37,317 bases of DNA from a virus (lineage: Duplodnaviria; Heunggongvirae; Uroviricota; Caudoviricetes): IMG/VR virus record IMGVR_UViG_2721755496_000005. One strand, written 5' to 3'. Under the pieces are notes generated by a model, which made no database searches, was not told the DNA's origin, and saw only the letters and a program-made list of their open reading frames with translations. Shown in pieces: positions 935 to 36,285 of this stretch; position 1 is the stretch's first letter; each line of letters opens with the position of its first letter. A program made the position numbers and the translations under genes.

Positions 935-2620
935 GTGAATATAAACGTCGCCGAATTGTTAAATGGGAATTACATTCTGTTATTATTTGTGGTCCTCGCG
1001 CTTGGGCTATGTCTCGGAAAGTTACGACTTGGTTCGATCCAACTGGGTAATTCCATTGGCGTTTTAGTCGTATCGCTGTTATTAGGCCAACAACATTTCA
1101 GCATTAACACCGATGCGCTTAATCTTGGCTTTATGCTGTTTATTTTCTGCGTCGGGGTCGAAGCCGGACCGAACTTTTTTTCCATTTTTTTTCGCGATGG
1201 GAAAAATTACCTAATGTTAGCACTGGTGATGGTTGGCAGTGCGCTGGTGATCGCCTTAGGGTTAGGTAAGCTGTTTGGCTGGGATATTGGCCTGACGGCC
1301 GGTATGTTAGCAGGCTCTATGACGTCGACACCGGTTCTGGTCGGTGCTGGCGATACACTGCGTCATTCCGGCATGGAAAGCAGGCAGCTCTCACTGGCAC
1401 TGGATAATCTGAGCCTCGGGTATGCCTTAACCTATTTAATCGGTCTGGTGAGTTTGATTGTTGGTGCGCGTTACTTGCCGAAATTGCAGCATCAGGACTT
1501 ACAGACCAGCGCCCAGCAAATCGCCCGCGAACGTGGCCTGGACACTGATGCCAACCGTAAGGTTTATTTACCGGTGATCCGCGCCTATCGCGTCGGCCCG
1601 GAGCTGGTGGCCTGGACCGACGGCAAAAATCTGCGTGAACTGGGTATTTATCGACAAACCGGCTGCTACATTGAACGTATTCGACGTAACGGGATTCTGG
1701 CAAATCCAGACGGTGATGCCGTGCTACAAATGGGCGATGAAATAGCGTTGGTAGGCTATCCCGACGCCCATGCCCGACTCGATCCCAGCTTCCGTAACGG
1801 TAAAGAAGTTTTCGATCGTGACCTTCTCGACATGCGTATCGTCACTGAAGAAGTGGTCGTTAAAAACCATAACGCTGTAGGTAAACGTCTCGCACAACTG
1901 AAGTTGACCGATCACGGTTGCTTCCTTAACCGCGTCATTCGTAGCCAGATTGAGATGCCGATAGATGACAACGTCGTGCTTAACAAAGGTGACGTTTTAC
2001 AAGTCAGCGGTGATGCCCGTCGCGTAAAAACCATCGCCGATCGCATCGGCTTTATCTCGATTCACAGCCAGGTCACTGACCTGCTGGCATTTTGCGCCTT
2101 CTTTGTTATTGGGCTGATGATCGGGATGATCACCTTCCAGTTCAGCACATTCAGTTTCGGCATGGGGAACGCTGCCGGGTTGTTATTCGCCGGAATTATG
2201 CTGGGCTTTATGCGTGCTAACCACCCGACCTTCGGTTACATTCCGCAAGGTGCATTAAGCATGGTGAAAGAGTTCGGCTTGATGGTGTTTATGGCAGGCG
2301 TTGGTCTGAGCGCCGGTAGCGGTATTAATAACGGCCTGGGCGCGATTGGCGGTCAGATGTTGATTGCCGGATTAATTGTCAGTCTTGTGCCCGTGGTTAT
2401 CTGTTTCTTGTTCGGTGCTTATGTATTGCGAATGAACCGCGCACTGTTGTTCGGCGCAATGATGGGCGCACGCACCTGCGCGCCGGCAATGGAGATCATC
2501 AGTGATACAGCTCGCAGTAACATCCCTGCGCTGGGCTATGCGGGCACCTACGCAATCGCCAACGTCCTGCTGACGCTGGCAGGGACAATCATCGTCATGG
2601 TATGGCCAGGATTAGGATAA
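935..2620 (+). CDS. ybjL: Putative transport protein YbjL (AAE-family, duplicated membrane domains with central TrkA-C-like region)
   Basis: 561-aa ORF, hydrophobic N- and C-terminal halves; matches YbjL length and the grxA-ybjM-ybjL neighbourhood. Confidence 0.88.
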
Positions 2621-2732
2621 AACTGAAGTTGCCCTGAAAATGAAATTTTTTTGCACAACCGCAGAACTTTTCCGCAGGGCATCAGTCTTAATTAATGCCA
2701 CTGCTTTTCTTTGATGTCCCCATTTTGTGGAG

Positions 2733-2776
2733 CCCATCAACCCCGCCATTTCGGTTCAAGGTTGATGGGTTTTTTG
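2733..2776 (+). terminator. Rho-independent terminator-like hairpin near chromosome/prophage junction
   Basis: Perfect 10-bp stem cccatcaacc / ggttgatggg followed by TTTTTT on the + strand. Confidence 0.45.
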
Positions 2777-2855
2777 TTGCCTGAAATTTAAGCTGTTTAA
2801 AATCATGATGTTAGAAACACTGTTTTTTAACGATGGCGACAAAATGGCGGCAGCG

Positions 2856-21908: not shown

Positions 21909-23675
21909 ATGAACACCACACTGACACCCGCAGATCTCGATCCCCGTCGGCAGGCCATGCTGCTGTACTTTCAGGGATACCGCGTAGCCCGCATTGCTGA
22001 AATGCTGGGCGAGAAAGTTGCAACCGTTCACAGCTGGAAAAAACGCGACAAGTGGGGTGACTATGGGCCGCTGGATCAGATGCAGCTCACCACCGCCGCA
22101 CGCTATTGCCAGCTCATTATGAAGGAGCACAAAGAAGGGAAAGATTTCAAAGAAATTGACCTGCTGGCACGCCAGTCGGAGCGCCACGCGCGGATCGGCA
22201 AGTTTAACAATGGCGGCAACGAAGCCGACTTAAACCCTAACGTCGCCAACCGCAACAAAGGGCCGCGCCGTCAGCCGGAAAAGAATGTTTTCACCGATGA
22301 ACAGATTGAGAAGCTGGAAGAAATCTTCCATTCCTCCATGTTCAACTACCAGCGCCACTGGTGGGAAGCTGGAAAAACCAACCGCATCCGTAATCTGCTG
22401 AAGTCACGCCAGATCGGCGCGACCTTTTACTTTGCCCGTGAAGCCCTGATTGACGCCCTGCTTACCGGACGTAACCAGATTTTCCTTTCTGCCAGTAAGG
22501 CACAGGCTCACGTCTTTAAGCAATACATCATCGACTTCGCCAAAGAAGTCGAGGTGGAGCTGAAAGGCGATCCGATGGTGCTTCCTAACGGGGCCACGCT
22601 TTACTTCCTCGGCACCAATGCCCGCACTGCCCAGAGTTATCACGGCAACCTGTATCTGGATGAATATTTCTGGATACCGAAATTCCAGGAGCTGCGCAAA
22701 GTGGCTTCCGGTATGGCTATTCACAAAAAATGGCGACAAACCTATTTTTCCACGCCATCCAGCCTGACACACAGTGCTTATCCGTTCTGGTCTGGTGCGC
22801 TGTTCAACCGTGGGCGCAACAAAGCCGATAAGGTGGACATCGACCTGTCCCACAGCAATCTGGCCCCCGGCCTGCTGTGCGCAGACGGGCAATACCGCCA
22901 GATAGTCACCGTGGAAGATGCAGTGCGCGGCGGATGTAACCTTTTCGACCTCGATCAGTTGCGCATGGAGTACAGCCCGGACGAATACCAGAACCTGCTG
23001 ATGTGCGAGTTTGTGGACGATCTCGCGTCCGTGTTCCCGCTCAGCGAGCTGCAGGCGTGCATGGTGGACAGTTGGGAAGTCTGGAGCGACTTTCATGCAC
23101 TGGCCCTGCGCCCGTTTGGCTGGCGCGAAGTGTGGATCGGTTATGACCCGGCAAAAGGTACGCAGAACGGCGACAGCGCCGGATGCGTGGTGGTGGCACC
23201 GCCAGCCGTGCCAGGCGGTAAGTTTCGCATTCTTGAACGTCACCAGTGGCGCGGGATGGACTTCCGCGCCCAGGCTGACGCCATCAAAAAACTGACCGAA
23301 CAGTACAACGTGACATACATCGGTATCGACTCAACCGGCGTCGGTCACGGGGTTTACGAGAACGTGAAAGCGTTTTTTCCTGCCGTCCGGGAGTTTGTCT
23401 ACAACCCCAACGTTAAAAACGCCCTGGTACTCAAGGCCTACGACATTATTAGCCACCGCCGCCTGGAGTTTGACGCAGGGCACACCGACATAGCGCAGTC
23501 CTTTATGGCAATCCGTCGCGCCACCACTGCCAGCGGCAACCGCCCGACCTATGAAGCCAGCCGCAGCGAAGAAGCCAGCCACGCCGATCTGGCCTGGGCA
23601 ACAATGCACGCACTGTTTAATGAACCGCTGCAGGGCGAGTCCGCCAATACCAGCAATATTGTGGAGATTTTTTGA
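21909..23675 (+). CDS. P: Terminase ATPase (large) subunit gpP
   Basis: 588-aa ORF divergent from O, overlapping Q by 4 nt. Confidence 0.9.
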   Translation: MNTTLTPADLDPRRQAMLLYFQGYRVARIAEMLGEKVATVHSWKKRDKWGDYGPLDQMQLTTAARYCQLIMKEHKEGKDFKEIDLLARQSERHARIGKFNNGGNEADLNPNVANRNKGPRRQPEKNVFTDEQIEKLEEIFHSSMFNYQRHWWEAGKTNRIRNLLKSRQIGATFYFAREALIDALLTGRNQIFLSASKAQAHVFKQYIIDFAKEVEVELKGDPMVLPNGATLYFLGTNARTAQSYHGNLYLDEYFWIPKFQELRKVASGMAIHKKWRQTYFSTPSSLTHSAYPFWSGALFNRGRNKADKVDIDLSHSNLAPGLLCADGQYRQIVTVEDAVRGGCNLFDLDQLRMEYSPDEYQNLLMCEFVDDLASVFPLSELQACMVDSWEVWSDFHALALRPFGWREVWIGYDPAKGTQNGDSAGCVVVAPPAVPGGKFRILERHQWRGMDFRAQADAIKKLTEQYNVTYIGIDSTGVGHGVYENVKAFFPAVREFVYNPNVKNALVLKAYDIISHRRLEFDAGHTDIAQSFMAIRRATTASGNRPTYEASRSEEASHADLAWATMHALFNEPLQGESANTSNIVEIF

Positions 23676-24700
23676 TGGGAAAGAGTAAGAAAAACCGCGC
23701 TGCGGCGACGAATCAGCTCAAGCATAAAAGCCAAACTTCAGCCGAAGCATTCAGCTTTGGCGATCCCGTTCCTGTTCTGGACCGCCGTGAACTGCTGGAC
23801 TATGTGGAATGCGTACAGATGGATCGCTGGTATGAGCCGCCCGTCAGCTTTGACGGACTGGCACGAACCTTCCGCGCCGCCGTGCATCACAGCTCACCAA
23901 TTGCGGTGAAATGCAACATTCTGACCAGTACCTACATCCCTCACCCGCTGCTCAGCCAGCAGGCTTTTTCACGTTTTGTGCAGGACTATCTGGTATTTGG
24001 TAACGCCTACCTGGAGAAACGCACGAACCGCTTCGGTGAAGTTATCGCCCTTGAGCCTGCTCTGGCAAAATACACCCGACGCGGGTTAGACCTGGATACC
24101 TACTGGTTTGTGCAATACGGTATGACAACCCAGCCGTATCAGTTCACGAAAGGCAGCATTTTTCATCTGATGGAACCTGACATCAACCAGGAGATCTACG
24201 GCCTACCAGGTTATCTTTCTGCCATTCCGTCAGCCCTGCTCAACGAGTCCGCCACGCTGTTCCGCCGGAAGTATTACATTAACGGCAGCCATGCAGGCTT
24301 CATCATGTACATGACCGATGCCGCGCAGAACCAGGAGGATGTGAACAACCTCCGCAATGCGATGAAAAGCGCCAAAGGCCCTGGCAACTTCCGCAACCTG
24401 TTTATGTACTCGCCTAACGGCAAAAAGGACGGGCTTCAGATCATCCCGTTGTCAGAAGTCGCGGCGAAGGATGAATTTCTGAACATCAAGAACGTCAGCC
24501 GTGATGACATGATGGCGGCACACCGCGTACCGCCTCAGATGATGGGAATTTTGCCGAATAATGTTGGGGGTTTTGGTGATGTGGAGAAGGCGAGCTGCGT
24601 CTTCGTAAGAAATGAACTATTACCACTTCAAAAAAGATTCATGGAAATAAACAGATGGCTTGGTCATGAAATTATAAATTTTGAAATATATACATTATAA
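23672..24700 (+). CDS. Q: Portal protein gpQ; last ~25 codons lie in AT-rich DNA and may be replaced
   Basis: 342-aa ORF after P; the 3' end from about 24615 is markedly AT-rich. Confidence 0.85.
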   Translation: MMGKSKKNRAAATNQLKHKSQTSAEAFSFGDPVPVLDRRELLDYVECVQMDRWYEPPVSFDGLARTFRAAVHHSSPIAVKCNILTSTYIPHPLLSQQAFSRFVQDYLVFGNAYLEKRTNRFGEVIALEPALAKYTRRGLDLDTYWFVQYGMTTQPYQFTKGSIFHLMEPDINQEIYGLPGYLSAIPSALLNESATLFRRKYYINGSHAGFIMYMTDAAQNQEDVNNLRNAMKSAKGPGNFRNLFMYSPNGKKDGLQIIPLSEVAAKDEFLNIKNVSRDDMMAAHRVPPQMMGILPNNVGGFGDVEKASCVFVRNELLPLQKRFMEINRWLGHEIINFEIYTL

Positions 24701-24737: not shown

Positions 24738-25799
24738 TTAATATTCAAAATTATTTTCTTCAATAGAGAACTCAATCCCTCGGGATAACTTATCAATATT
24801 CACATCAAATGCGATATCTGTTAATTCACCATCCTCGATTTCATACATAACTTCAATTTCAATATCGAAACTAATCTCTTGAACTTCAGTTCGTGTGGTT
24901 GTCTCCATTGGAATCATTACTTTATCTTCGCTATCCCAATACCCATTATTAAAGTCTGGACCAGAAACAGTAACTTCAAAATCTACAGAAACAGAGAAGG
25001 TCGCTAGACAATAATTATTGTCAATCTTAATTATTGATGGTTCAAAGTCATCAATATTGACGACTTCAAATGAATCCAATTCAGCGTCTTCCCAAGTTGA
25101 AACGTTATATCCATCGGCATCATTGAGTTGGGCAATTACGTCCGCTCTTATGTCTTCACGTTTGCTTTCGATAAACTGCATCAATTTATTACTTAATTCG
25201 TTTGTATGCGTATTGTATTCACCTAGAAACTTATCAAGTGAATCAATTTGATGAAGATTGTTTTTACCATCACAATAATTTTTTAAGTCACTATCCTCAG
25301 AAATGATATACACATCTTCATCATTAACAAATCGCTCTACCGCAGCTAAAGTGATTGCATCAGGAAACTCACTTTTTTTCTTATTTTGCCCAAATGGTGG
25401 TTCTTTGCCAAAGTATTTATCTAAAACCTCATTAAGATCTATCACTTCTATTGTAGCTAATTTGGCGTGACATCCTTTCAAAAAATCATCAAAAACTTTT
25501 TGTGCTGCTTCGTGAATTTCATGTTCGTTAAATTGCTGAAAAAAACCATGGAGCGGTCCATTATCAATACTATTCAAAAGCCTAGCTTTTCTTTGTACTG
25601 TGTTTATAGCCTGCAGAGCATCCTTTATTGATTCCTCTATTTTACCTTTTACTTCTCTCTCTACAACTGTAGTTGTAATTAAGACTAAATCACCTTTCGC
25701 ACATAATTCATGGAAAGCTTTAAATGCTACCCCCTCAAAATGAAGACCAGCCTTTACGTACGTTTGTGTGTCAATAAATACCTTATTTGTTTTAAGCAT
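24738..25799 (-). CDS. Cargo protein: putative PIN-like nuclease domain with a strongly acidic C-terminal half
   Basis: 353 aa in AT-rich DNA. The N-terminal half has acidic positions spaced like the PIN catalytic residues (D10, E47/E49, D147 in DAITLAAV, D169/D171 in YIISEDSD). The C-terminal half has repeated hydrophobic-acidic strand motifs such as FDIEIEV and FDVNID. Confidence 0.5.
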   Translation of the reverse strand: MLKTNKVFIDTQTYVKAGLHFEGVAFKAFHELCAKGDLVLITTTVVEREVKGKIEESIKDALQAINTVQRKARLLNSIDNGPLHGFFQQFNEHEIHEAAQKVFDDFLKGCHAKLATIEVIDLNEVLDKYFGKEPPFGQNKKKSEFPDAITLAAVERFVNDEDVYIISEDSDLKNYCDGKNNLHQIDSLDKFLGEYNTHTNELSNKLMQFIESKREDIRADVIAQLNDADGYNVSTWEDAELDSFEVVNIDDFEPSIIKIDNNYCLATFSVSVDFEVTVSGPDFNNGYWDSEDKVMIPMETTTRTEVQEISFDIEIEVMYEIEDGELTDIAFDVNIDKLSRGIEFSIEENNFEY

Positions 25800-25920
25800 A
25801 CTAATCCTAATAAGTTTTAAGATCCGCTACAATTGTTTATGTTTATTTTTTATCAATAATCATACGTAGTTAAGATTATCCATGTCGAAAAATTAAATCA
25901 ACTTCAATTTATCCTTAAGC

Positions 25921-25944
25921 GCGCGCTCGTATCCCCGCCACGCC
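25921..25944 (-). other. Candidate cos (cohesive end) site
   Basis: Minus strand GGCGTGGCGGGGATACGAGCGCGC; the first 13 nt equal the 186 cos sequence as recalled (GGCGTGGCGGGGAAAGCAT); sits in a GC-normal island between AT-rich cargo genes. Confidence 0.4.
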
Positions 25945-26266
25945 TGCCCGCTTTATGTAGTGGTTTTCATGCACCTGCATGTTCTACGTAAAAGCCCGCT
26001 AGTTCTGGCGAGCCTTAGCAAAAACGATCCTTAAACGATCATGCGATTTCATGCAGCATAGTCATGCACTGTCTAAGAGAAGTGAAAGTCCGTATCTGAA
26101 TGACCACTTGAAAAACGAAACATACAGACTTACAAAGATGAAGCTCTACTGTGAGCGAGGAACATACATAGTTGCTCTGTAATAGCCAAATTTTAAGCAG
26201 GAAATCTCTTTTTTATGACAAAACTATAAAGAAAAACAGACCGTTTCATCTCTCAATGAAACTATA

Positions 26267-27844
26267 CTACAATACTTTTCTCTCGATGGTATTTTTAATG
26301 GTCAACATATCTTTAGGAATACTTTTTTTCCCCTCTATACGTATGGTAAACACAAAAAGAATAACGGCTGATCTCACAATTTTCATGAGTTGTAAGAGCT
26401 GTTTCTCAAACTTTTCTTTCTCAATAAACCTCACCTTATCAAAAAATCCATAAGAATTATATAAATCAACTAACATGTCTTTCTCGTGAATAACTAACAG
26501 TTTATGTTCTAAATCATTCCTCCATTCTTTAAAAAAAGCAAGCTCACCATTTTTATCATTCAAATCCATAGCAATACTAAACAACCCCAGCAATCCTTTA
26601 TTATTTATTTTGTTTATTTTAAGCTTTCTTTTTTCATCACTAATCCGCCAGAAGTTATGAAAGTATATATGTCCTCTATCTGGTTTTAAATCAAATAATT
26701 GACACAGAGCAACTGCTATTTTATCCAAGATACCAAAGCAAGCTCTAAATGCAACCCTTAACTTCTCAACATTTTCATACAATATTTCTCCATTATACAA
26801 TTCAGAATAACATACCTCCGAATCCTCATCAAAAAACTCACTATCAACCTTATATTCAAAAAACATTTTTCGTGCTAAGGAATACTCAGCTTTAAGTCTA
26901 TTTAACACCATTTCCATTGGCACTATAAAATCACCAAACACACCTTCCTCGGTGGTCGCAATAGTTATATTATCTTTAGATGACGCATAACAATTGCAAT
27001 ATAGCGAATGATCAGACAACATTAGATTATTATCTATACAAAACCTCTGGTAGTTTGATAAAGTATCATACTCCTCCTGCGTGAGCCTTTCATCTGTACT
27101 TATATCCTCTATGCCATATACACATGATTCACTCAATATACTTTCGTTGTACTTTATTTTTCTTTGAAGAGCAACCTTCCATGAAGGAAAACATTTCCCT
27201 GACTTTATTGCACACTCATAACCTCGAATAACTTCTTTAATCATTTTATATGTATATGTTGTAGATAATTCATTAAGCAATTCTAATGCCTCAGATCTGT
27301 TTACCCACGCCTGAGGAATTGAGTTATCAATAGATATTGCTTGTTCATAATAATCCATTGATTCAGATATACGATATTGTTTTTTTAATACATTAGCTAG
27401 ATTAACTATTAAATCAGGGGGCACCCATCCATCTTCTTGTGAAAGTTTAAACGCTTTCCAGTAATTATTTTTTACATCATTCAGCTTAATGAAACTATCA
27501 ATATCTGCATTGTCATTAGGATTAAAATCAAGAACTGCGCTCATTCCATTTGCCAAGTTATAGTAATATAAAGATTCTTTCATTATAGTCAGAAATTCAT
27601 TTTTATTGTTTATAAAGATATTTAAGCCTTCCTCCGCTATATTTTTTACATTACTAAAATTTCCGATATCAATAAGATTTCCGGCCAAATTAGATAATAT
27701 AATTATTCTATTTTCTTTGATTGTATTTATCTCATCGATACCGTTAAGAATATCCTTTACATTTTTATAGGCAGAATCAAATGAACCTGCATTAATAAGA
27801 TCATCTACGAACCCCATTTTTGAAACAACATAGTTGATATCCAT
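26267..27844 (-). CDS. Cargo protein: TPR-like N-terminal region plus C-terminal HEPN-like domain (R-x4-H); candidate abortive-infection RNase
   Basis: 525 aa in AT-rich DNA; start has an AAGAGG RBS. Contains WRNDLEH (R-x4-H) in the C-terminal quarter and a TPR-like segment YYEQAISIDNSIPQAWVNRSEAL. Confidence 0.55.
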   Translation of the reverse strand: MDINYVVSKMGFVDDLINAGSFDSAYKNVKDILNGIDEINTIKENRIIILSNLAGNLIDIGNFSNVKNIAEEGLNIFINNKNEFLTIMKESLYYYNLANGMSAVLDFNPNDNADIDSFIKLNDVKNNYWKAFKLSQEDGWVPPDLIVNLANVLKKQYRISESMDYYEQAISIDNSIPQAWVNRSEALELLNELSTTYTYKMIKEVIRGYECAIKSGKCFPSWKVALQRKIKYNESILSESCVYGIEDISTDERLTQEEYDTLSNYQRFCIDNNLMLSDHSLYCNCYASSKDNITIATTEEGVFGDFIVPMEMVLNRLKAEYSLARKMFFEYKVDSEFFDEDSEVCYSELYNGEILYENVEKLRVAFRACFGILDKIAVALCQLFDLKPDRGHIYFHNFWRISDEKRKLKINKINNKGLLGLFSIAMDLNDKNGELAFFKEWRNDLEHKLLVIHEKDMLVDLYNSYGFFDKVRFIEKEKFEKQLLQLMKIVRSAVILFVFTIRIEGKKSIPKDMLTIKNTIERKVL

Positions 27845-28094
27845 TCAATCCTCTTTAAACTAAGCTAATAATACCAATCATTATATGGATGAGATCAATA
27901 TAGAACATGCCATCTCCGGCAAAAATCGTACTACATCAGACCAGTGCCCTTCAAATAATATAAATTGAACTTAGATACTTCTGCTTCAACCAGTGTGTTA
28001 AATCCATCGCTTGAACTCAGAACAAAAAGCGGACGATCACTTATCAAAATGGCCGTCCACCTAACGCCTCGTTTCACTCGTTGCCCAAAATAGT

Positions 28095-28122
28095 CCCCCA
28101 TCAGAATGAATCCTCTTGGGGG
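28095..28122 (-). terminator. Possible terminator of the tum-like / dinI-like operon
   Basis: Stem ccccc / ggggg with an 18-nt loop, then a moderately U-rich tract on the minus strand; weak. Confidence 0.3.
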
Positions 28123-28131
28123 CAACGTTTC

Positions 28132-28365
28132 TTAATGCAGCCAGCTGTCGTCTTCCCACACCTTCTGCATAATTTTCATCACTTGCTTCCTTTCTTCGTC
28201 CAGTTGCAGTCCGGTTAGTTCCACACCGTTAGAGCTACCTTTGCGAATGCGAATTACCGTTTTGGGATACAGGGGGCACAGATTGCGGTAAAGCTCGGAT
28301 TCAAGGGCGTCCAGGGTAGACTGGCTAATCTTCTGCTCTTTATCGATCATTATTTCAATGCGCAT
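28132..28365 (-). CDS. DinI-like protein
   Basis: Start at internal ATG (MRIEIMIDK...); about 77 aa; matches the DinI pattern MRIEVTI...LxxELxxR...QxWExxDxW. Confidence 0.75.
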   Translation of the reverse strand: MRIEIMIDKEQKISQSTLDALESELYRNLCPLYPKTVIRIRKGSSNGVELTGLQLDEERKQVMKIMQKVWEDDSWLH

Positions 28366-28375
28366 AAAAGTCACC

Positions 28376-28564
28376 TCAGCTGATGACATCCATTGAGCGG
28401 TTGTATTCGTGGGTTCTGATTTTTGCCATGAGTTCATCTGTTAGTTCAGAAACCCACTGCAGAGCCAGCCCCTTCTCTTCATCACTACACTCACTAGCCG
28501 CTACAAGCTTAAGAAAAAAATCAATGCGCTGGAGCTTCAAAGACTCCAAAAAATAGTCCTGCAT
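28376..28564 (-). CDS. Small Tum-like candidate antirepressor
   Basis: 62-aa ORF directly downstream of a consensus LexA box and upstream of the dinI-like gene, the arrangement of the 186 tum operon; assigned by context only. Confidence 0.4.
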   Translation of the reverse strand: MQDYFLESLKLQRIDFFLKLVAASECSDEEKGLALQWVSELTDELMAKIRTHEYNRSMDVIS

Positions 28565-28605
28565 CTTTCCTCCTATGACACCACAAGAAATACTGTATGT
28601 ATAAC

Positions 28606-28625
28606 CACTGTTTATATTTACAGTA
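28606..28625 (-). promoter_or_regulatory. LexA operator (SOS box) of the tum-like operon
   Basis: cactgtttatatttacagta = CTGT-N8-ACAG with AT-rich spacer, about 45 bp upstream of the Tum-like start. Confidence 0.6.
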
Positions 28626-28717
28626 TATAATAATCTTACTGATGTAAAACGTTTTTTTACGTTCATCAGCCTGATATGCCTGGTATTATTAAGAGCACGA
28701 ATTGTTAATCCGCGTAA

Positions 28718-29074
28718 TTAATACAGGTTCCGCCACTTATCATCTTCCCGCAAACACTGGTTCCGATAGAAGATACGCAAGCCTGCTCCTGACGGAATAC
28801 TGCCGCCGCGAAGGAGTAAATCGACCTCTTTCTCGCTACCATCAAATCCTCTGGACTTCAGCTCATAGACGAGCTGCAGTCGCTGATGGTCTGTAATTCG
28901 CTGTTTGTAGTCTTTACGCCGTTTCGGTTTCACCAGGCGTAACCTTGCAGCCAGTTCCCGGCGCTCTTTTTTGTTCATACTGTGCAGGTAATCGTGCAAC
29001 TCCTTGTCATCCATGCTGGTAATGTCCGTTCTGGGGTCCCCATCAGCTGATTTATCTTTCTCCTGTTGGTTCAA
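28718..29074 (-). CDS. Hypothetical phage protein
   Basis: 118-aa ORF overlapping the gpA stop; basic and charged; no family recognised. Confidence 0.5.
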
Positions 29075-31158
29075 ATTTTCAGCAAGGGGACAGTTATTGC
29101 CACGAGTCCAAGGGGACAGTTATTGCCACGAGTCCAAGGGGCGCAAGCGCCCTGGTCGGCTGCCGCCTCCTGAACATCAACGGCCTTACGAACCATTTTC
29201 CACTTCACGGCATGAGTGCAGATCTTGCCCTCTGCAATAGGTGACCAGATGCCATAAATACGAATGCCGTGATCGCCATAGGCGGTCGGCTCTTCGTTGA
29301 TTTCATAAGCGGTTCTGATGAGGTGATATTTGCGGGGAACCAGTACGCCGCCCTGCTTCATGATGTAGGTGGCAAAACAACCAGCATCAGCAGCAGCCAG
29401 GATGGCATCAAGGCGTGGGTTATCCAGTACCGGCGCACCTGCTTTTTTGTCCCCCTGTTGCCTTGCCGCCTGACCAGCCAGCAATCGCAGTTCACGGTAA
29501 GCCTGACGCCCCGGAATGCCAAAGAAGCGGAATTGCTGAACACGATGCAGAGACGCCCAGGCATTAACGTATTCAGCATTATCACGCAGGGATTTCCCCG
29601 TTTCCTTGCTGATCTCGCCAGCCAGACCACGCCCGTCAATGTTCTTACTGATGTATTTCGCGATGTAGCTTGTTGGCGTTCCTTTGCGCGGGTTAATCAA
29701 CTCAGACTTAAAGCGCGGCCCAGTGTTATTGCCCAGCTCCTCGCGGTCTTCACGGATGGCAAACTTACGCAGTAATGCAGTGATGGCACGGCGGTCTTTT
29801 TTGCGCATGAAACACAACAGGTGCCAGTGAACTGTGCCGTCATGATGCGGCTCAGCCACCCGCACGCCATACCAGCGCAACCCGGCTTTGTGCATCGCCT
29901 TACGAAATGCAGCAAACATGCCGACCAGATAATCGCTGCTTTGTCTTACCGTCGCGTTTGTCCAGGTCGGGTTTGGTCTGCCGTTATTGAGCGTGGAATG
30001 GAAACGTGACGGACAGGTGATGGTGTAGAAAACGGCGCAGTCACCGCGCATTTCCGCGATAAGCTCCAGACCTTTAACACAGGCCATCATCTCATTGCGG
30101 CGATGCGCCGGGTTGCTGCTGCTGGCGTTTACCACATCCTCCATGTCCAGCGTGTCGCCGTCTTCGTTCACCAGTTCATGAGAACGGAAAAACTCCAGCG
30201 ACTTACGGCGCTGCTCACGTTTATGCATCACGGCTTCATAGCTGACATAGGGAGATGCTTTTTTGCTGACCAGGCAGACAGCACGCAACTGCTCTTCCCG
30301 CCATTCGCAACGCATCCTCCATAATTTCCGATACCACCAATCGGCGCACAACATACGCGCCAGCGAACCCGGAATGAGTTCATAGGGCACGGGTTTACGG
30401 CGGTTTCTTTTCCGACGGAGTTGCTCAAACGCAGGAGGGATTACATCCAGACGCAGGGTTTCCGCTGCCACCTTTTCCCATGTCTTGCGGATTTCTTCTG
30501 GCTTAACGTCATCGGTGGCATACAAATCACCACAAGCTGCATCAAGGCACATGCTCATATGCGCGGCAACAAGGGTAGACAGGCGCTTCACCTGATCCTG
30601 ACTCATTTCAGGCAGGATCAGCAGGCCGTCCAGCCCTTCATGGCTTGCCATAAAGCGAAAAGAAGTGGATAGCTGACTCTCGCGTACATGCTCCAGTCGT
30701 TCCAGACATGGCTTAATCGTCTCACGCAAATAGCGGGAATAAGCCTTTGGCCTGCCCAGGCTGCTGAAGTATTCAATACGTTGCATCAGCGGCTTGCTGA
30801 TATGGGAAGGCTGGGCGTTGACGTCCGCCAGAATGACCATATCCGGATTAAAACGCTGCTGCTCATGCGCCAGCTTTGCCCGACTAATGAGCTTATCCTG
30901 CTCGATTTCGCGCTGGACAGGATCACGGGATTCATTAAAGAAATAACGCTCCCAGACCTGATCACTCAGCGCCTCACGGCGCAGCTGTTCCTGCTCGTTA
31001 TCGGCAGCGTACAGAGTGATCAGGTTTGAAAGCGCAGAAACCGGCGCAACTTCCGCCGGGTCCAGATAAGGGTTAATGGCCTTTTTCGGGCTGCTCCATG
31101 AGAATGCTGCTGCGACCTCGTTAAAGCCGCTGCAGTTGTTCATATCAGCATGGCTCAT
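29071..31158 (-). CDS. A: Replication initiation endonuclease gpA (rolling-circle initiator)
   Basis: 695-aa ORF with the VHWHLL and YIAKYISKN motifs recalled as characteristic of P2/186 gpA-type initiators; size close to 186 A. Confidence 0.88.
29085..29136. repeat. Perfect 26-bp tandem direct repeat (2 copies plus 5-nt partial third) within the 3' end of gene A
   Basis: aggggacagttattgccacgagtcca at 29085..29110 and again at 29111..29136, then agggg. Confidence 0.9.
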
Positions 31159-33813: not shown

Positions 33814-33908
33814 GATGCAACATCTCCTATTGGCTTGTGGTGAGCCTGTAGTAATCGTGACAAGTACCCAAACGGGGACAAAATTGATACTAGGATCGCA
33901 AAAGAGAT
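33814..33908. promoter_or_regulatory. Immunity switch region between divergent cI and apl
   Basis: 95-bp intergenic region between divergent repressor and apl genes; promoters and operators not delimited. Confidence 0.45.
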
Positions 33909-34505
33909 ATGTCAACATCAAAGTACCCAAATGAGATCAAAATAAATCCCAATAAAGGTGGTAAGGCTGCGATTGAGCGATTAGTCGAAGCTTATGGCTT
34001 TACGACACGACAGGCTTTAGCTGATCACTTGGAAGTATCAAAAAGCACTCTGGCGAACAGGTATTTGCGGGATACGTTTCCTGCAGACTGGATAATCCAA
34101 TGTGCTCTTGAAACAGGAACCTCACTGAAATGGTTAACCACCGGGCAAGGCCTTAAGCAAAGCTCGCTGACAGCAGCTACAGAAGAGCTTGCCAAGTTTC
34201 GCCTTACCGCAGGCAAAATGATTGAAGATGGTTCATATGTCTTCGATTCATCATTTCTTCCTGCAAATCTTTCATCACCAATTGTTATTCAGGATGGGCT
34301 CGTCACATACATTTGTGATCAAAAATTTTCTGAAGTACTTGATGGGCACTGGTTAATCAACATCGACGGAACCTATTCCATTCGAAAAATCACAAAGCTT
34401 CCAAAAGGTATGATTAAAATTACAAGTACAGAGAATAGCTTTGAATGTGCATTTTCTGATATTGAAGTAGTTGCTTGTATAAGAAGTACAATAGTTTCAA
34501 ATTAA
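33909..34505 (+). CDS. cI: Immunity repressor, 186 CI-like
   Basis: 198 aa; the pattern EAYGF...LA-H...S-LANRY...CALETG-SLKWLTTGQG resembles the 186 CI N-terminal domain as recalled. Confidence 0.7.
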   Translation: MSTSKYPNEIKINPNKGGKAAIERLVEAYGFTTRQALADHLEVSKSTLANRYLRDTFPADWIIQCALETGTSLKWLTTGQGLKQSSLTAATEELAKFRLTAGKMIEDGSYVFDSSFLPANLSSPIVIQDGLVTYICDQKFSEVLDGHWLINIDGTYSIRKITKLPKGMIKITSTENSFECAFSDIEVVACIRSTIVSN

Positions 34506-34525
34506 TATAGTAAAAGGATTTAAAA

Positions 34526-36202
34526 ATGAATTCATTTTCCATCGTTATATTCTTATTAGCATTTCTCGCCCCCATTCTAGCTGTAATATTATTTAAGCAA
34601 AGCAAAAAACATAAAGCGGCTATAGATACCTTGACAGCTAACAACATAGCCCTTTCCAACCAACTGAAAGAAAATCAAGAAGAATTAGCACAGACTGTAC
34701 GAGATCTATCAGAGCTTGAAGGACGAGCTGCACCATTATGGCAATACGTAGAATTGCACAGCGCAGTGATGGAAGCAGAGAATAAGATAAAAAATGCAGA
34801 CTCAATAGCCAGGCAAAAAATAGAAGAAGCCCAAATAAAGGCTGCTAAGACAGTAAACGAAGCAAATTATCAAGCTCAGATAAAAATAAGCAACGCTAAT
34901 AGCGAAGCTATAGCAATTACTAAAGACGCTCGCGATGCACGCCTGAAAGCTAAAGAACGTCTTGATAATGCCAATAGTAAAGCAAATGAGCTGATCTCAA
35001 ATGCTAATGACAATGCAGTGAAAATTATTTCCGATGCAGAAGAAAGAGCAAAAGAGATTGCTGGTTCAGCATATGAAGCTAAAGAGTTTGCAGAAAAATA
35101 TGAAGCAGTTGCCAAATCAATGAAAAATAAAATTGAAGGTTATGGTGATGAATGGATCATCCCTAACCGTAGCGTTCTCGATGAATTGGCAGAAAATTAT
35201 GAGTTTACAGATGCAGGCAAGGAATTACAAAAAGCCAGGGAGTTAACAAAATCATTAATAAAAACTAATAAAGCTGCTTCGTGTGATTATGTTGAACAAA
35301 ACAGGCGTAATACTGCTATCAACTTTGTTTTAGATGCCTTCAATGGAAGAGTTGACAGTATTTTATCAAAAGTCAAACACAACAATTTTGGAAAACTTTC
35401 CCAAGAGATAAAAGATGCGTTTCAACTTGTAAATTACAATGGTTCTGCCTTTAGGTCCGCAAAAATAAGTGACATCTATCTTCAAGCTCGACTCAACGAG
35501 CTAAAATGGGGTGTTGCAGTTAATGAAATTATGCTCGAAGAAAAAGAAGAGCAAAGAAGGATTAAAGAACAACTTCGTGAAGAGGAAAGAGCTCGTAGGG
35601 AGTATGAAAAAGCGATAAAAGAAGCTGAAAAAGAAGAGAAAGCTATTCAGCAAGCTATAAATAAAGCAACAAAAGAGCTTATGCTTGCAAATGAAGAACA
35701 ACGCTTAGCTTTAGAGCAAAAAATAGCTGAACTACAGTTAAAATATGAAGAAGCTGAAGCTAAAAACCAACGAGCTATTTCTATGGCTCAACAAACTAGA
35801 TCAGGCCACGTTTATATAATTAGTAATATTGGCTCATTTGGCGAAGATGTATATAAAATTGGAATGACACGCCGCCTTGAACCACTTGATCGTGTTCGTG
35901 AACTCGGTGATGCTAGTGTTCCTTTTTCGTTCGATGTTCATGCGATGATTTATAGTGATGATGCACCATCATTAGAAAATCATCTGCATAAAGTCTTCAA
36001 CGAAAAACAGGTCAATAAAATTAACTCACGAAAAGAGTTTTTCAACGTAAATATTAAAGAAATTAAGTCTGTTATTGAAGATATGAACATCAACGCACAA
36101 TGGACAATGTTTGCGGAAGCGAAAGAATATAGAGAGTCACTGGCGATTGAGCAAGAGCGCAAAGCAGCAACTTCCGCCAACGATGAACTGCATGTTGCTT
36201 AG
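34526..36202 (+). CDS. Cargo protein: N-terminal transmembrane helix, long coiled coil, C-terminal GIY-YIG-like (T5orf172/MUG113-type) domain
   Basis: 558 aa in AT-rich DNA, 21 bp after cI with AAAGGA RBS; hydrophobic N-terminus, about 380 aa of heptad-like Lys/Glu/Ala-rich sequence, then GHVYIISN...YKIGMTRR...R-x3-E-L...N. Confidence 0.6.
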   Translation: MNSFSIVIFLLAFLAPILAVILFKQSKKHKAAIDTLTANNIALSNQLKENQEELAQTVRDLSELEGRAAPLWQYVELHSAVMEAENKIKNADSIARQKIEEAQIKAAKTVNEANYQAQIKISNANSEAIAITKDARDARLKAKERLDNANSKANELISNANDNAVKIISDAEERAKEIAGSAYEAKEFAEKYEAVAKSMKNKIEGYGDEWIIPNRSVLDELAENYEFTDAGKELQKARELTKSLIKTNKAASCDYVEQNRRNTAINFVLDAFNGRVDSILSKVKHNNFGKLSQEIKDAFQLVNYNGSAFRSAKISDIYLQARLNELKWGVAVNEIMLEEKEEQRRIKEQLREEERARREYEKAIKEAEKEEKAIQQAINKATKELMLANEEQRLALEQKIAELQLKYEEAEAKNQRAISMAQQTRSGHVYIISNIGSFGEDVYKIGMTRRLEPLDRVRELGDASVPFSFDVHAMIYSDDAPSLENHLHKVFNEKQVNKINSRKEFFNVNIKEIKSVIEDMNINAQWTMFAEAKEYRESLAIEQERKAATSANDELHVA

Positions 36203-36260
36203 CAATGTATGTTTCATAGTAATCACACATTGATTACTGGTTGTATATACAGTTAAATTT

Positions 36261-36285
36261 AGCCCTCTGATATGAGGGCTTTTTT
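36261..36285 (+). terminator. Rho-independent terminator immediately upstream of int
   Basis: Stem agccctc / gagggct, 6-nt loop, then TTTTT; the int ATG follows at 36286. Confidence 0.5.

Follow-up and report, generated by a model that had tools for sequence, protein, structure and literature searches.

A putative membrane-tethered nuclease gene of the SNIPE family between cI and int of a P2/186-like prophage of Escherichia coli

Results

A gene between the repressor and the integrase

The stretch of DNA analysed here (the window: 37,317 nucleotides, IMG/VR record IMGVR_UViG_2721755496_000005) is E. coli chromosome with a P2/186-like prophage. It runs from ybjL (935..2620) and RybB through tail, head and lysis genes to the terminase and portal genes, GPA, a Dam-type methylase gene, cII, apl, cI, the gene that is the subject of this report, and int. 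That gene almost certainly belongs to the SNIPE (PD-lambda-1) family of phage defence proteins. A reading of the window made without database searches (the sequence-only reading) had proposed an AT-rich 558-aa gene between cI and int, and its coordinates and strand were borne out. Its GC content is 0.369, compared with 0.501 for the whole window, 0.399 for cI and 0.471 for int. Orthologues with 82–85% amino acid identity were found in Klebsiella, Citrobacter, Salmonella and Enterobacter, and the ratio of non-synonymous to synonymous differences (pN/pS) against a Klebsiella orthologue is 0.14 over the whole gene. On these two grounds this is a real gene under purifying selection and not a chance open reading frame (ORF). 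In one protein cluster (P0059, 164 member sequences) the start is placed at M82, which gives 477 aa and loses the membrane anchor described below; codons 1–81 have a pN/pS of 0.27, and this value, together with the orthologues, supports the long form that contains the predicted transmembrane (TM) segment. The gene is carried in full by 165 of 5,426 complete E. coli genomes and, with the many copies in Klebsiella, Citrobacter, Salmonella and Enterobacter, the 558-aa clade is a common one. Strains L73 and MS14386 are examples of natural lysogens, their copies being 99.8–100% identical.

Architecture of the protein

A 19-residue Kyte–Doolittle scan peaks at 2.99 over aa 4–24 and scores 1.6 or less everywhere else, in keeping with the single N-terminal TM helix of the sequence-only reading. 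Directly after the hydrophobic segment come K24, K27, K28, H29 and K30, and by the positive-inside rule the bulk of the protein is predicted to be cytoplasmic. A TM-like N-terminus is present in 89 of 90 and in 54 of 59 diverse homologues (two sets). The AlphaFold2 (AF2) model calculated from 90 diverse sequences has a mean predicted local distance difference test score (pLDDT) of 77.7 and consists of a helix (residues 2–204), a compact helical domain (217–309, DUF4041, pLDDT 78–91), a second helical segment (316–425) and a domain at 427–526 whose elements follow the order beta-beta-alpha-beta-alpha. An AlphaFold model built from 47 close orthologues, all of 82% identity or more, was discarded, its pLDDT being 53 overall and below 50 in both globular domains. 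The same reading had described about 380 aa of coiled coil. Helical stalks are indeed predicted; they do not form one continuous element, as the DUF4041 domain interrupts them in the model, and a classical coiled coil was not borne out, a crude Fourier test giving the alpha-helical periodicity of 3.6 residues and not the heptad value of 3.5 (the heptad-periodicity test was not significant).

Both domains named in the sequence-only reading, which had suggested a Pfam search for DUF4041 and T5orf172, were matched above their gathering scores. PF13250 (DUF4041) covers aa 267–322 (E = 3e-12, 46.6 bits against a gathering score of 27), T5orf172 covers 427–520 (E = 9e-17) and MUG113 covers 443–520 (E = 1.6e-19, likewise above its gathering score). 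The GIY-YIG motif residues are located at Y430-IISN434, Y443-KIGMT448, R449/R450, E484 and N497, so that the C-terminal pattern quoted by that reading is present, and its residues are mostly invariant in an alignment of 59 diverse family members. The invariant positions of this alignment include Y430, S433, N434, G436, G439, K444, G446, T448, R449, R450, E459, E484, N497 and a few more, and they make up the GIY-YIG core. A profile search of Protein Data Bank (PDB) sequences returned no nuclease and only helices resembling ATP synthase subunit b, at E ≥ 0.002.

The first stalk has no BLAST similarity to the reference SNIPE protein introduced below, and when the N-terminal 265 aa were scanned against Pfam at lenient settings, no significant family emerged and the matches, to DUF6377, DivIVA and ATP-synt_B, were all sub-threshold. 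We take this stalk to be the variable 'adapter' part of the SNIPE family, which cannot be aligned to that of the characterized allele. A match to PF28068 ('Scy') on some orthologues is a weak coiled-coil match and was not taken as adapter homology, and NCBIfam matches to DivIVA, SMC and ATP synthase families, all far under their cut-offs, were likewise rejected as homology.

Membership of the SNIPE family

Two PADLOC models for PD-Lambda-1 match the protein over nearly their whole length, PDLC03976 with E = 4e-120 (aa 116–550 against positions 37–481 of a 491-position profile) and PDLC03977 with E = 4e-116; PHROG 1847 matches with E = 4e-132. Pfam has since renamed PF13250 'SNIPE', and RefSeq calls copies that are 99.9% identical 'SNIPE associated domain-containing protein'. 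There is no partner gene, the only neighbours being cI and int, and the same trio recurs in E. coli, Klebsiella and Citrobacter. Judged by sequence, every defining feature of SNIPE that could be examined here is present: the model match, the DUF4041 domain, the putative nuclease domain with its glutamate, the predicted TM segment and the single-gene organization. Membership of the family is near certain, and the proposal of the sequence-only reading that the gene encodes a membrane-anchored exclusion or defence effector of GIY-YIG type gains support from the strength of the PADLOC match, from the conserved catalytic glutamate and from an architecture, DUF4041 followed by T5orf172, that is that of a known defence family. 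An exhaustive homologue search gave 3,381 clusters (50% identity) at E ≤ 1e-3, and 1,411 when the limit was E ≤ 1e-30. In many of these clusters the alignment begins at residue ~45–150, and the long first stalk is therefore common to a large subgroup.

The system as such is already known. The family has a name, its mechanism is published, and identical sequences stand under the same name in databases; being covered by PADLOC, DefenseFinder-type resources, Pfam and RefSeq, it has little value for discovery, and its practical use lies in corrected annotation and in the choice of an experimental system.

Comparison with the characterized SNIPE of ECOR26

PD-lambda-1 of E. coli ECOR26 (RCP76574.1, 500 aa) came to light in a functional selection (Vassallo et al., 2022, PMC9519451); it has since been given the name SNIPE, and how it works has been established (bioRxiv 2025; Saxton et al., Nature 2026, PMC13190303). 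The following properties are all taken from the latter work (PMC13190303). SNIPE is an inner-membrane protein with a periplasmic N-terminus, the remainder being cytoplasmic, and it associates with ManYZ; its DUF4041 domain is able to bind DNA and can be crosslinked to the tape measure protein of a siphovirus. Phage DNA is cleaved during injection, DNA already within the cell is not acted on, and prophage induction is unaffected. Defence is lost upon the E414A substitution in the GIY-YIG domain, and SNIPE lacking its TM segment is highly toxic and cleaves the host chromosome. Lambda and most siphoviruses of the BASEL collection are targeted, myoviruses and podoviruses are spared, and the defence is direct, infected cells surviving at high multiplicity of infection (MOI). 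Substitutions at W257 and E223 enhanced defence against the Bas14–18 clade. The N-terminal region, hypervariable in ~500 homologues, has been proposed to be an adapter.

Our first homologue list was saturated with near-identical orthologues, and to obtain the reference type we searched E. coli genomes for distant DNA matches and applied a nine-residue fingerprint. The copy found in E. coli strain 730V1 (L002:4984-6486; 1503 nt, 500 aa) has the length of PD-lambda-1 and contains each of the nine residues that were substituted in the SNIPE paper (E223, N250, L253, W257, E264, K305, I308, T319 and E414). Because of the equal length and of these residues at their stated positions, we treat it, on sequence grounds, as the characterized allele or a near-identical copy. 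The window protein shares with it the order of N-terminal TM segment, stalk, DUF4041, stalk and C-terminal GIY-YIG nuclease domain, the single-gene organization and a prophage location. It is 58 aa longer, however, and its N-terminal ~265 aa cannot be aligned to the ~195 aa of the reference. The alignment starts at residue 265 (aa 265–555, 49% identity, E = 2e-76), and identity varies by region, being 73% in the nuclease domain, 48% in the second stalk and 27% in DUF4041. E414 of the reference aligns with E484. At the sites of W257 and E223 the window protein has K327 and S292 respectively.

The window protein is thus placed, by alignment, in a divergent SNIPE clade with sensor regions too diverged for specificity to be transferred from the reference. 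Because its N-terminal region is unalignable and its DUF4041 domain is only 27% identical, its partners may differ from ManYZ and siphovirus tape measure proteins. The two genes also differ in setting: the reference copy lies in the nin/ren region of a lambdoid prophage and has its own upstream region, whereas the window gene lies in the cI–int operon of a P2/186-like myovirus prophage. Between the reference-type gene and ren, on the same strand, is a gene for a 515-aa HD-domain protein (L002:6846-8393), which may be a second defence cargo of the nin/ren region.

Table 1. Features of the window discussed in the text, with positions, strand and the evidence for each.
Feature	Position	Strand	Evidence or remark
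Host small RNA gene RybB	2700..2778	+	Rfam 105 bits, E = 7e-21; directly after ybjL, left of the phage genes
Genes of the portal–GPA island	24738..25799, 26267..27844, 28132..28437	-	Encode PIN_12, TPR–HEPN_LA2681 and DinI-like proteins
apl–cI intergenic control region	33857..33915	.	Consensus scan; placement compared with pR/pL of phage 186
186-type CI immunity repressor, 198 aa	33909..34505	+	PF07022 8e-32, PF16452 4e-27
Spacer between cI and the gene, 20 nt	34506..34525	+	Shine–Dalgarno (SD) sequence AAGGA at 34514-34518; too short for a terminator
SNIPE/PD-lambda-1 family gene	34526..36202	+	558 aa, ATG start, TAG stop
Predicted N-terminal TM anchor, aa 4–24	34535..34597	+	19-residue Kyte–Doolittle maximum 2.99; sole such segment
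Predicted first helical stalk, aa 25–204	34598..35137	+	AF2 helix 2–204, pLDDT about 75–91
DUF4041 (Pfam 'SNIPE') globular domain, aa 217–322	35174..35491	+	PF13250 at aa 267–322
Predicted second helical stalk, aa 316–425, E/K/R-rich	35471..35800	+	AF2 helices 316–387 and 390–425
GIY-YIG-class nuclease domain (T5orf172/MUG113), aa 427–526	35804..36103	+	Pfam, alignment to the reference, model
Predicted catalytic glutamate E484	35975-35977	+	Aligned with reference E414
Terminator-like hairpin AGCCCTC-TGATAT-GAGGGCT + T6	36261..36285	+	Directly before the int ATG; 7-bp GC-rich stem
Tyrosine integrase, 343 aa	36286..37317	+	PF24624 3e-32, PF00589 7e-22; window ends at the stop codon

Transcription of the cI–int region

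The apl–cI control region contains a strong promoter-like site on the minus strand (TTGACA-17-TAGTAT, resembling the lytic pR) and a weak one on the plus strand (GTGACA-16-CAAAAT), a candidate for the lysogenic cI promoter; both are consensus matches only. A scan from the cI start to the ATG of the SNIPE gene gave no promoter-like or terminator-like site at the scan threshold, and the 20-nt spacing is identical in Klebsiella and Citrobacter prophages. CI of the window is 33% identical to CI of phage 186 (E = 4e-35). The corresponding genes of phage 186 overlap, the stop of cI with the start of int, and are annotated as a single lysogenic operon under the control of pL and the CII-activated pE. 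Given this overlap, the window gene is regarded as an insertion into the lysogenic operon. From the 186 operon, the 20-nt gap and the lack of promoter-like and terminator-like sites between the genes we infer that the SNIPE gene is likely co-transcribed with cI from the lysogenic promoter, with attenuated read-through into int and/or masked int translation.

The hairpin before int has a calculated folding energy of -17.5 kcal/mol (z = -3.2). Its 3' arm, GAGGGC, is the sole SD-like sequence for int, the ATG of which comes right after the T-run, so the hairpin could limit both transcription into int and int translation in lysogens. Together with ~60 nt around it, the hairpin is kept in sibling prophages irrespective of their cargo (with a stem variant in one of them, L014) and is therefore part of the int backbone.

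A variable slot exchanged together with cI

In sibling prophages that share the chromosomal site of the window prophage the cI–int slot is filled by other genes: a full-length Old nuclease (L011:2737-4506, PADLOC E = 6e-234), a 329-aa protein with a weak sub-threshold DUF2207_C match (L012:3508-4497), and ORFs of 314 aa (L013:3525-4469) and 63 aa (L014:4183-4374) that match neither Pfam nor PADLOC models. Klebsiella phage 4LV2017 has an unrelated 349-aa ORF in the slot (L009:768-1817), with no significant Pfam or PADLOC match, and in phage 186 the slot is empty. These ORFs of 63 to 349 aa, none of which has a significant match, are candidate defence genes. Each occupant is paired with a different cI allele; some of the repressors are 292–312 aa long, and the one that was scanned (L011, 312 aa) has a duplicated helix-turn-helix (HTH) domain.

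Homology to these relatives stops at about 33860–33922 and returns at 36203–36223, from which it follows that cI and cargo are exchanged together. Among the 5,426 complete E. coli genomes, cI, the gene and their junction occur in 165, and a search with the cI allele alone also finds 165; the allele is strictly linked to the gene (165/165). The cI–gene–int arrangement also occurs in a Citrobacter prophage at a different chromosomal site. In related genomes int is followed by rcdA, and segments with 100% identity over cI, the gene and int adjoin rcdA/ybjJ in E. coli E308. The prophage therefore sits between rybB and rcdA, and its attachment site is probably close to the 3' end of rybB or coincides with it.

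P2-related, K139-like Vibrio prophages have been described as having a defence hotspot in the cI–int interval (Rousset et al., 2022, PMC9122126), and for this reason the idea of such a location is not a new one. Rapid exchange of genes at a single locus between conserved phage genes, with known defence genes (here Old) among the occupants, is common to both cases. They differ in that the published hotspot belongs to Vibrionaceae, whereas the enterobacterial 186-like lineage swaps cI as well: the left boundary falls before cI or a short way into it, and for that reason cI is no conserved anchor here. The cI–cargo cassette adds a documented enterobacterial case to the cI–int hotspot. A homologue from Phocaeicola (51% identical) has AbiH and putAbiC genes as its neighbours on the two sides.

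In one Klebsiella genome a 495-aa RVT_1 gene (L008:7768-9255, minus strand) stands between the SNIPE homologue and int, and its product recurs at the GPA-side hotspot of the same prophage; possible identities are a group II intron and a reverse transcriptase associated with defence.

Discussion

Proposed mode of action

We propose that the gene encodes a GIY-YIG nuclease that would be made constitutively in lysogens, tethered to the membrane, and would cut incoming phage DNA at the site of injection while being harmless to the resident prophage; we give this reading a probability of roughly 0.78. As cargo of the lysogenic operon the gene would be co-transcribed with cI, the hairpin limiting read-through into int, and production would be constitutive by analogy with the ECOR26 protein. 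The single N-terminal TM helix would hold the protein in the inner membrane with nearly all of it in the cytoplasm. There, again by analogy with ECOR26, the nuclease is expected to be auto-inhibited as well as tethered, and the chromosome would be spared. The injection site would be located by DUF4041, possibly aided by the N-terminal region, through contact with the phage tape measure protein, with entry proteins of the host, or with both, and infecting phage DNA would be cut while crossing the inner membrane. A lysogen would be protected against heterologous phages, probably mainly long-tailed non-contractile ones. The resident prophage should come to no harm, as SNIPE spares DNA already inside the cell and the reference protein did not restrict contractile-tailed BASEL phages.

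The published work already covers the diversity of SNIPE N-terminal regions. What remains new is a clade with a different adapter/sensor, inherited as a matched cassette of cI and cargo. With the same type of nuclease domain and a different sensor/adapter, the 558-aa clade may offer a natural specificity variant for studying how the injection machinery is recognized. It is conceivable, though we hold it to be rather unlikely, that this enterobacterial clade is a functionally distinct SNIPE variant, directed by its unrelated N-terminal stalk and strongly diverged DUF4041 at another entry route or class of tape measure protein, possibly without ManYZ and perhaps at phages that the reference spares. 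With the gene moving among 186-like prophages only in company with its own cI, as a 2.3-kb cassette, immunity through the repressor and exclusion at injection would then be passed on as a matched pair.

Alternative explanations

The protein could act by abortive infection, the nuclease being released or activated so that host and phage DNA are both destroyed and the cell dies. The toxicity of reference SNIPE without its TM segment, which cuts the chromosome and so has no intrinsic sequence specificity, would fit this, as would the divergent sensor parts of the 558-aa clade. The characterized allele, however, defends directly, with survival of infected cells at high MOI, and a TM anchor in 89 of 90 homologues fits permanent tethering; we consider an abortive mode improbable.

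GIY-YIG-class domains, T5orf172 and MUG113 among them, are also found in homing endonucleases, and a selfish homing-type enzyme that spreads the cI–gene cassette among related prophages would account for the sharp recombination boundaries (about 33860–33922 and 36203) and for the strict linkage to one cI allele. Yet a membrane anchor and DUF4041 are atypical of homing endonucleases, and sibling cassettes with the same boundaries carry non-nuclease or unrelated cargo, so the exchange is independent of the SNIPE gene. The family is, moreover, experimentally a defence system (PMC13190303). A homing role is therefore given very little weight.

Slightly less credible still is a part in the phage life cycle, as an accessory factor for the maintenance of lysogeny, integration or excision. 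The position between two lysogeny genes and the probable co-transcription would suit such a factor. Phage 186, with its overlapping cI and int, nevertheless lacks the gene, and sibling prophages that share the chromosomal site have Old or unrelated ORFs in its place; its homologues, for their part, are found in defence-type neighbourhoods outside prophages and in the lambdoid nin region.

An SMC-like 'chromosome segregation ATPase', the annotation that the gene has in Klebsiella phage KP12 and in phage vB_EcoM-813R9 and one that weak sub-threshold coiled-coil matches to SMC, DivIVA and ATP synthase b might suggest, is already refuted at the level of sequence, no ATPase domain or Walker motif family being matched in Pfam, NCBIfam or PADLOC (nor AAA or SMC_N in Pfam) and SMC_prok_A reaching 15.5 bits against a cut-off of 729 in the helical region, where such matches fall in low-complexity helices. 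We have rejected the label, which is carried by the gene in two phage records, KP12 (OM835953.1, L001 4027..5703) and ON470620.1. The KP12 genome is P2-like and is yet filed under Vequintavirinae.

Relation to other exclusion systems

The sequence-only reading had likened the locus to lambda rexAB. The arrangement is the same, a gene directly downstream of the immunity repressor and on its strand, which implies expression in the lysogen, and rexAB too excludes other phages. The likeness does not extend to homology, no Rex family being among the Pfam, PADLOC, PHROG and NCBIfam matches of the window protein, nor to mechanism: RexAB needs two proteins and is an abortive system that acts on the membrane potential, while SNIPE defends directly by means of one protein, a nuclease. 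The old, tin and fun genes of P2 are comparable as AT-rich defence cargo of P2-like prophages, and an Old homologue fills the cI–int slot of a sibling prophage; their proteins and mechanisms are different and their loci lie elsewhere (the hotspot between replication gene A and portal, and Z/fun). Zorya, Kiwa and gp15 of HK97 are inner-membrane defences that act at genome entry (PMC13190303). Their components are unrelated to SNIPE, Zorya and Kiwa being multi-protein systems and gp15 blocking entry without a nuclease.

A second AT-rich island

The P2 defence hotspot of the window prophage, between the portal gene (23672..24700) and replication gene A (29071..31158), holds an AT-rich island (24738..28666, GC 0.31–0.35). 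It encodes a 353-aa PIN_12 protein (PF16289, 1.5e-25) and a 525-aa protein with tetratricopeptide repeats (TPR) and a C-terminal HEPN_LA2681 domain (PF18733, 1.9e-38). Neither has a significant model match in PADLOC 2.0, where only a weak TPR match was seen, and on this basis the island is a candidate for uncharacterized defence cargo. It also encodes a DinI-like protein.

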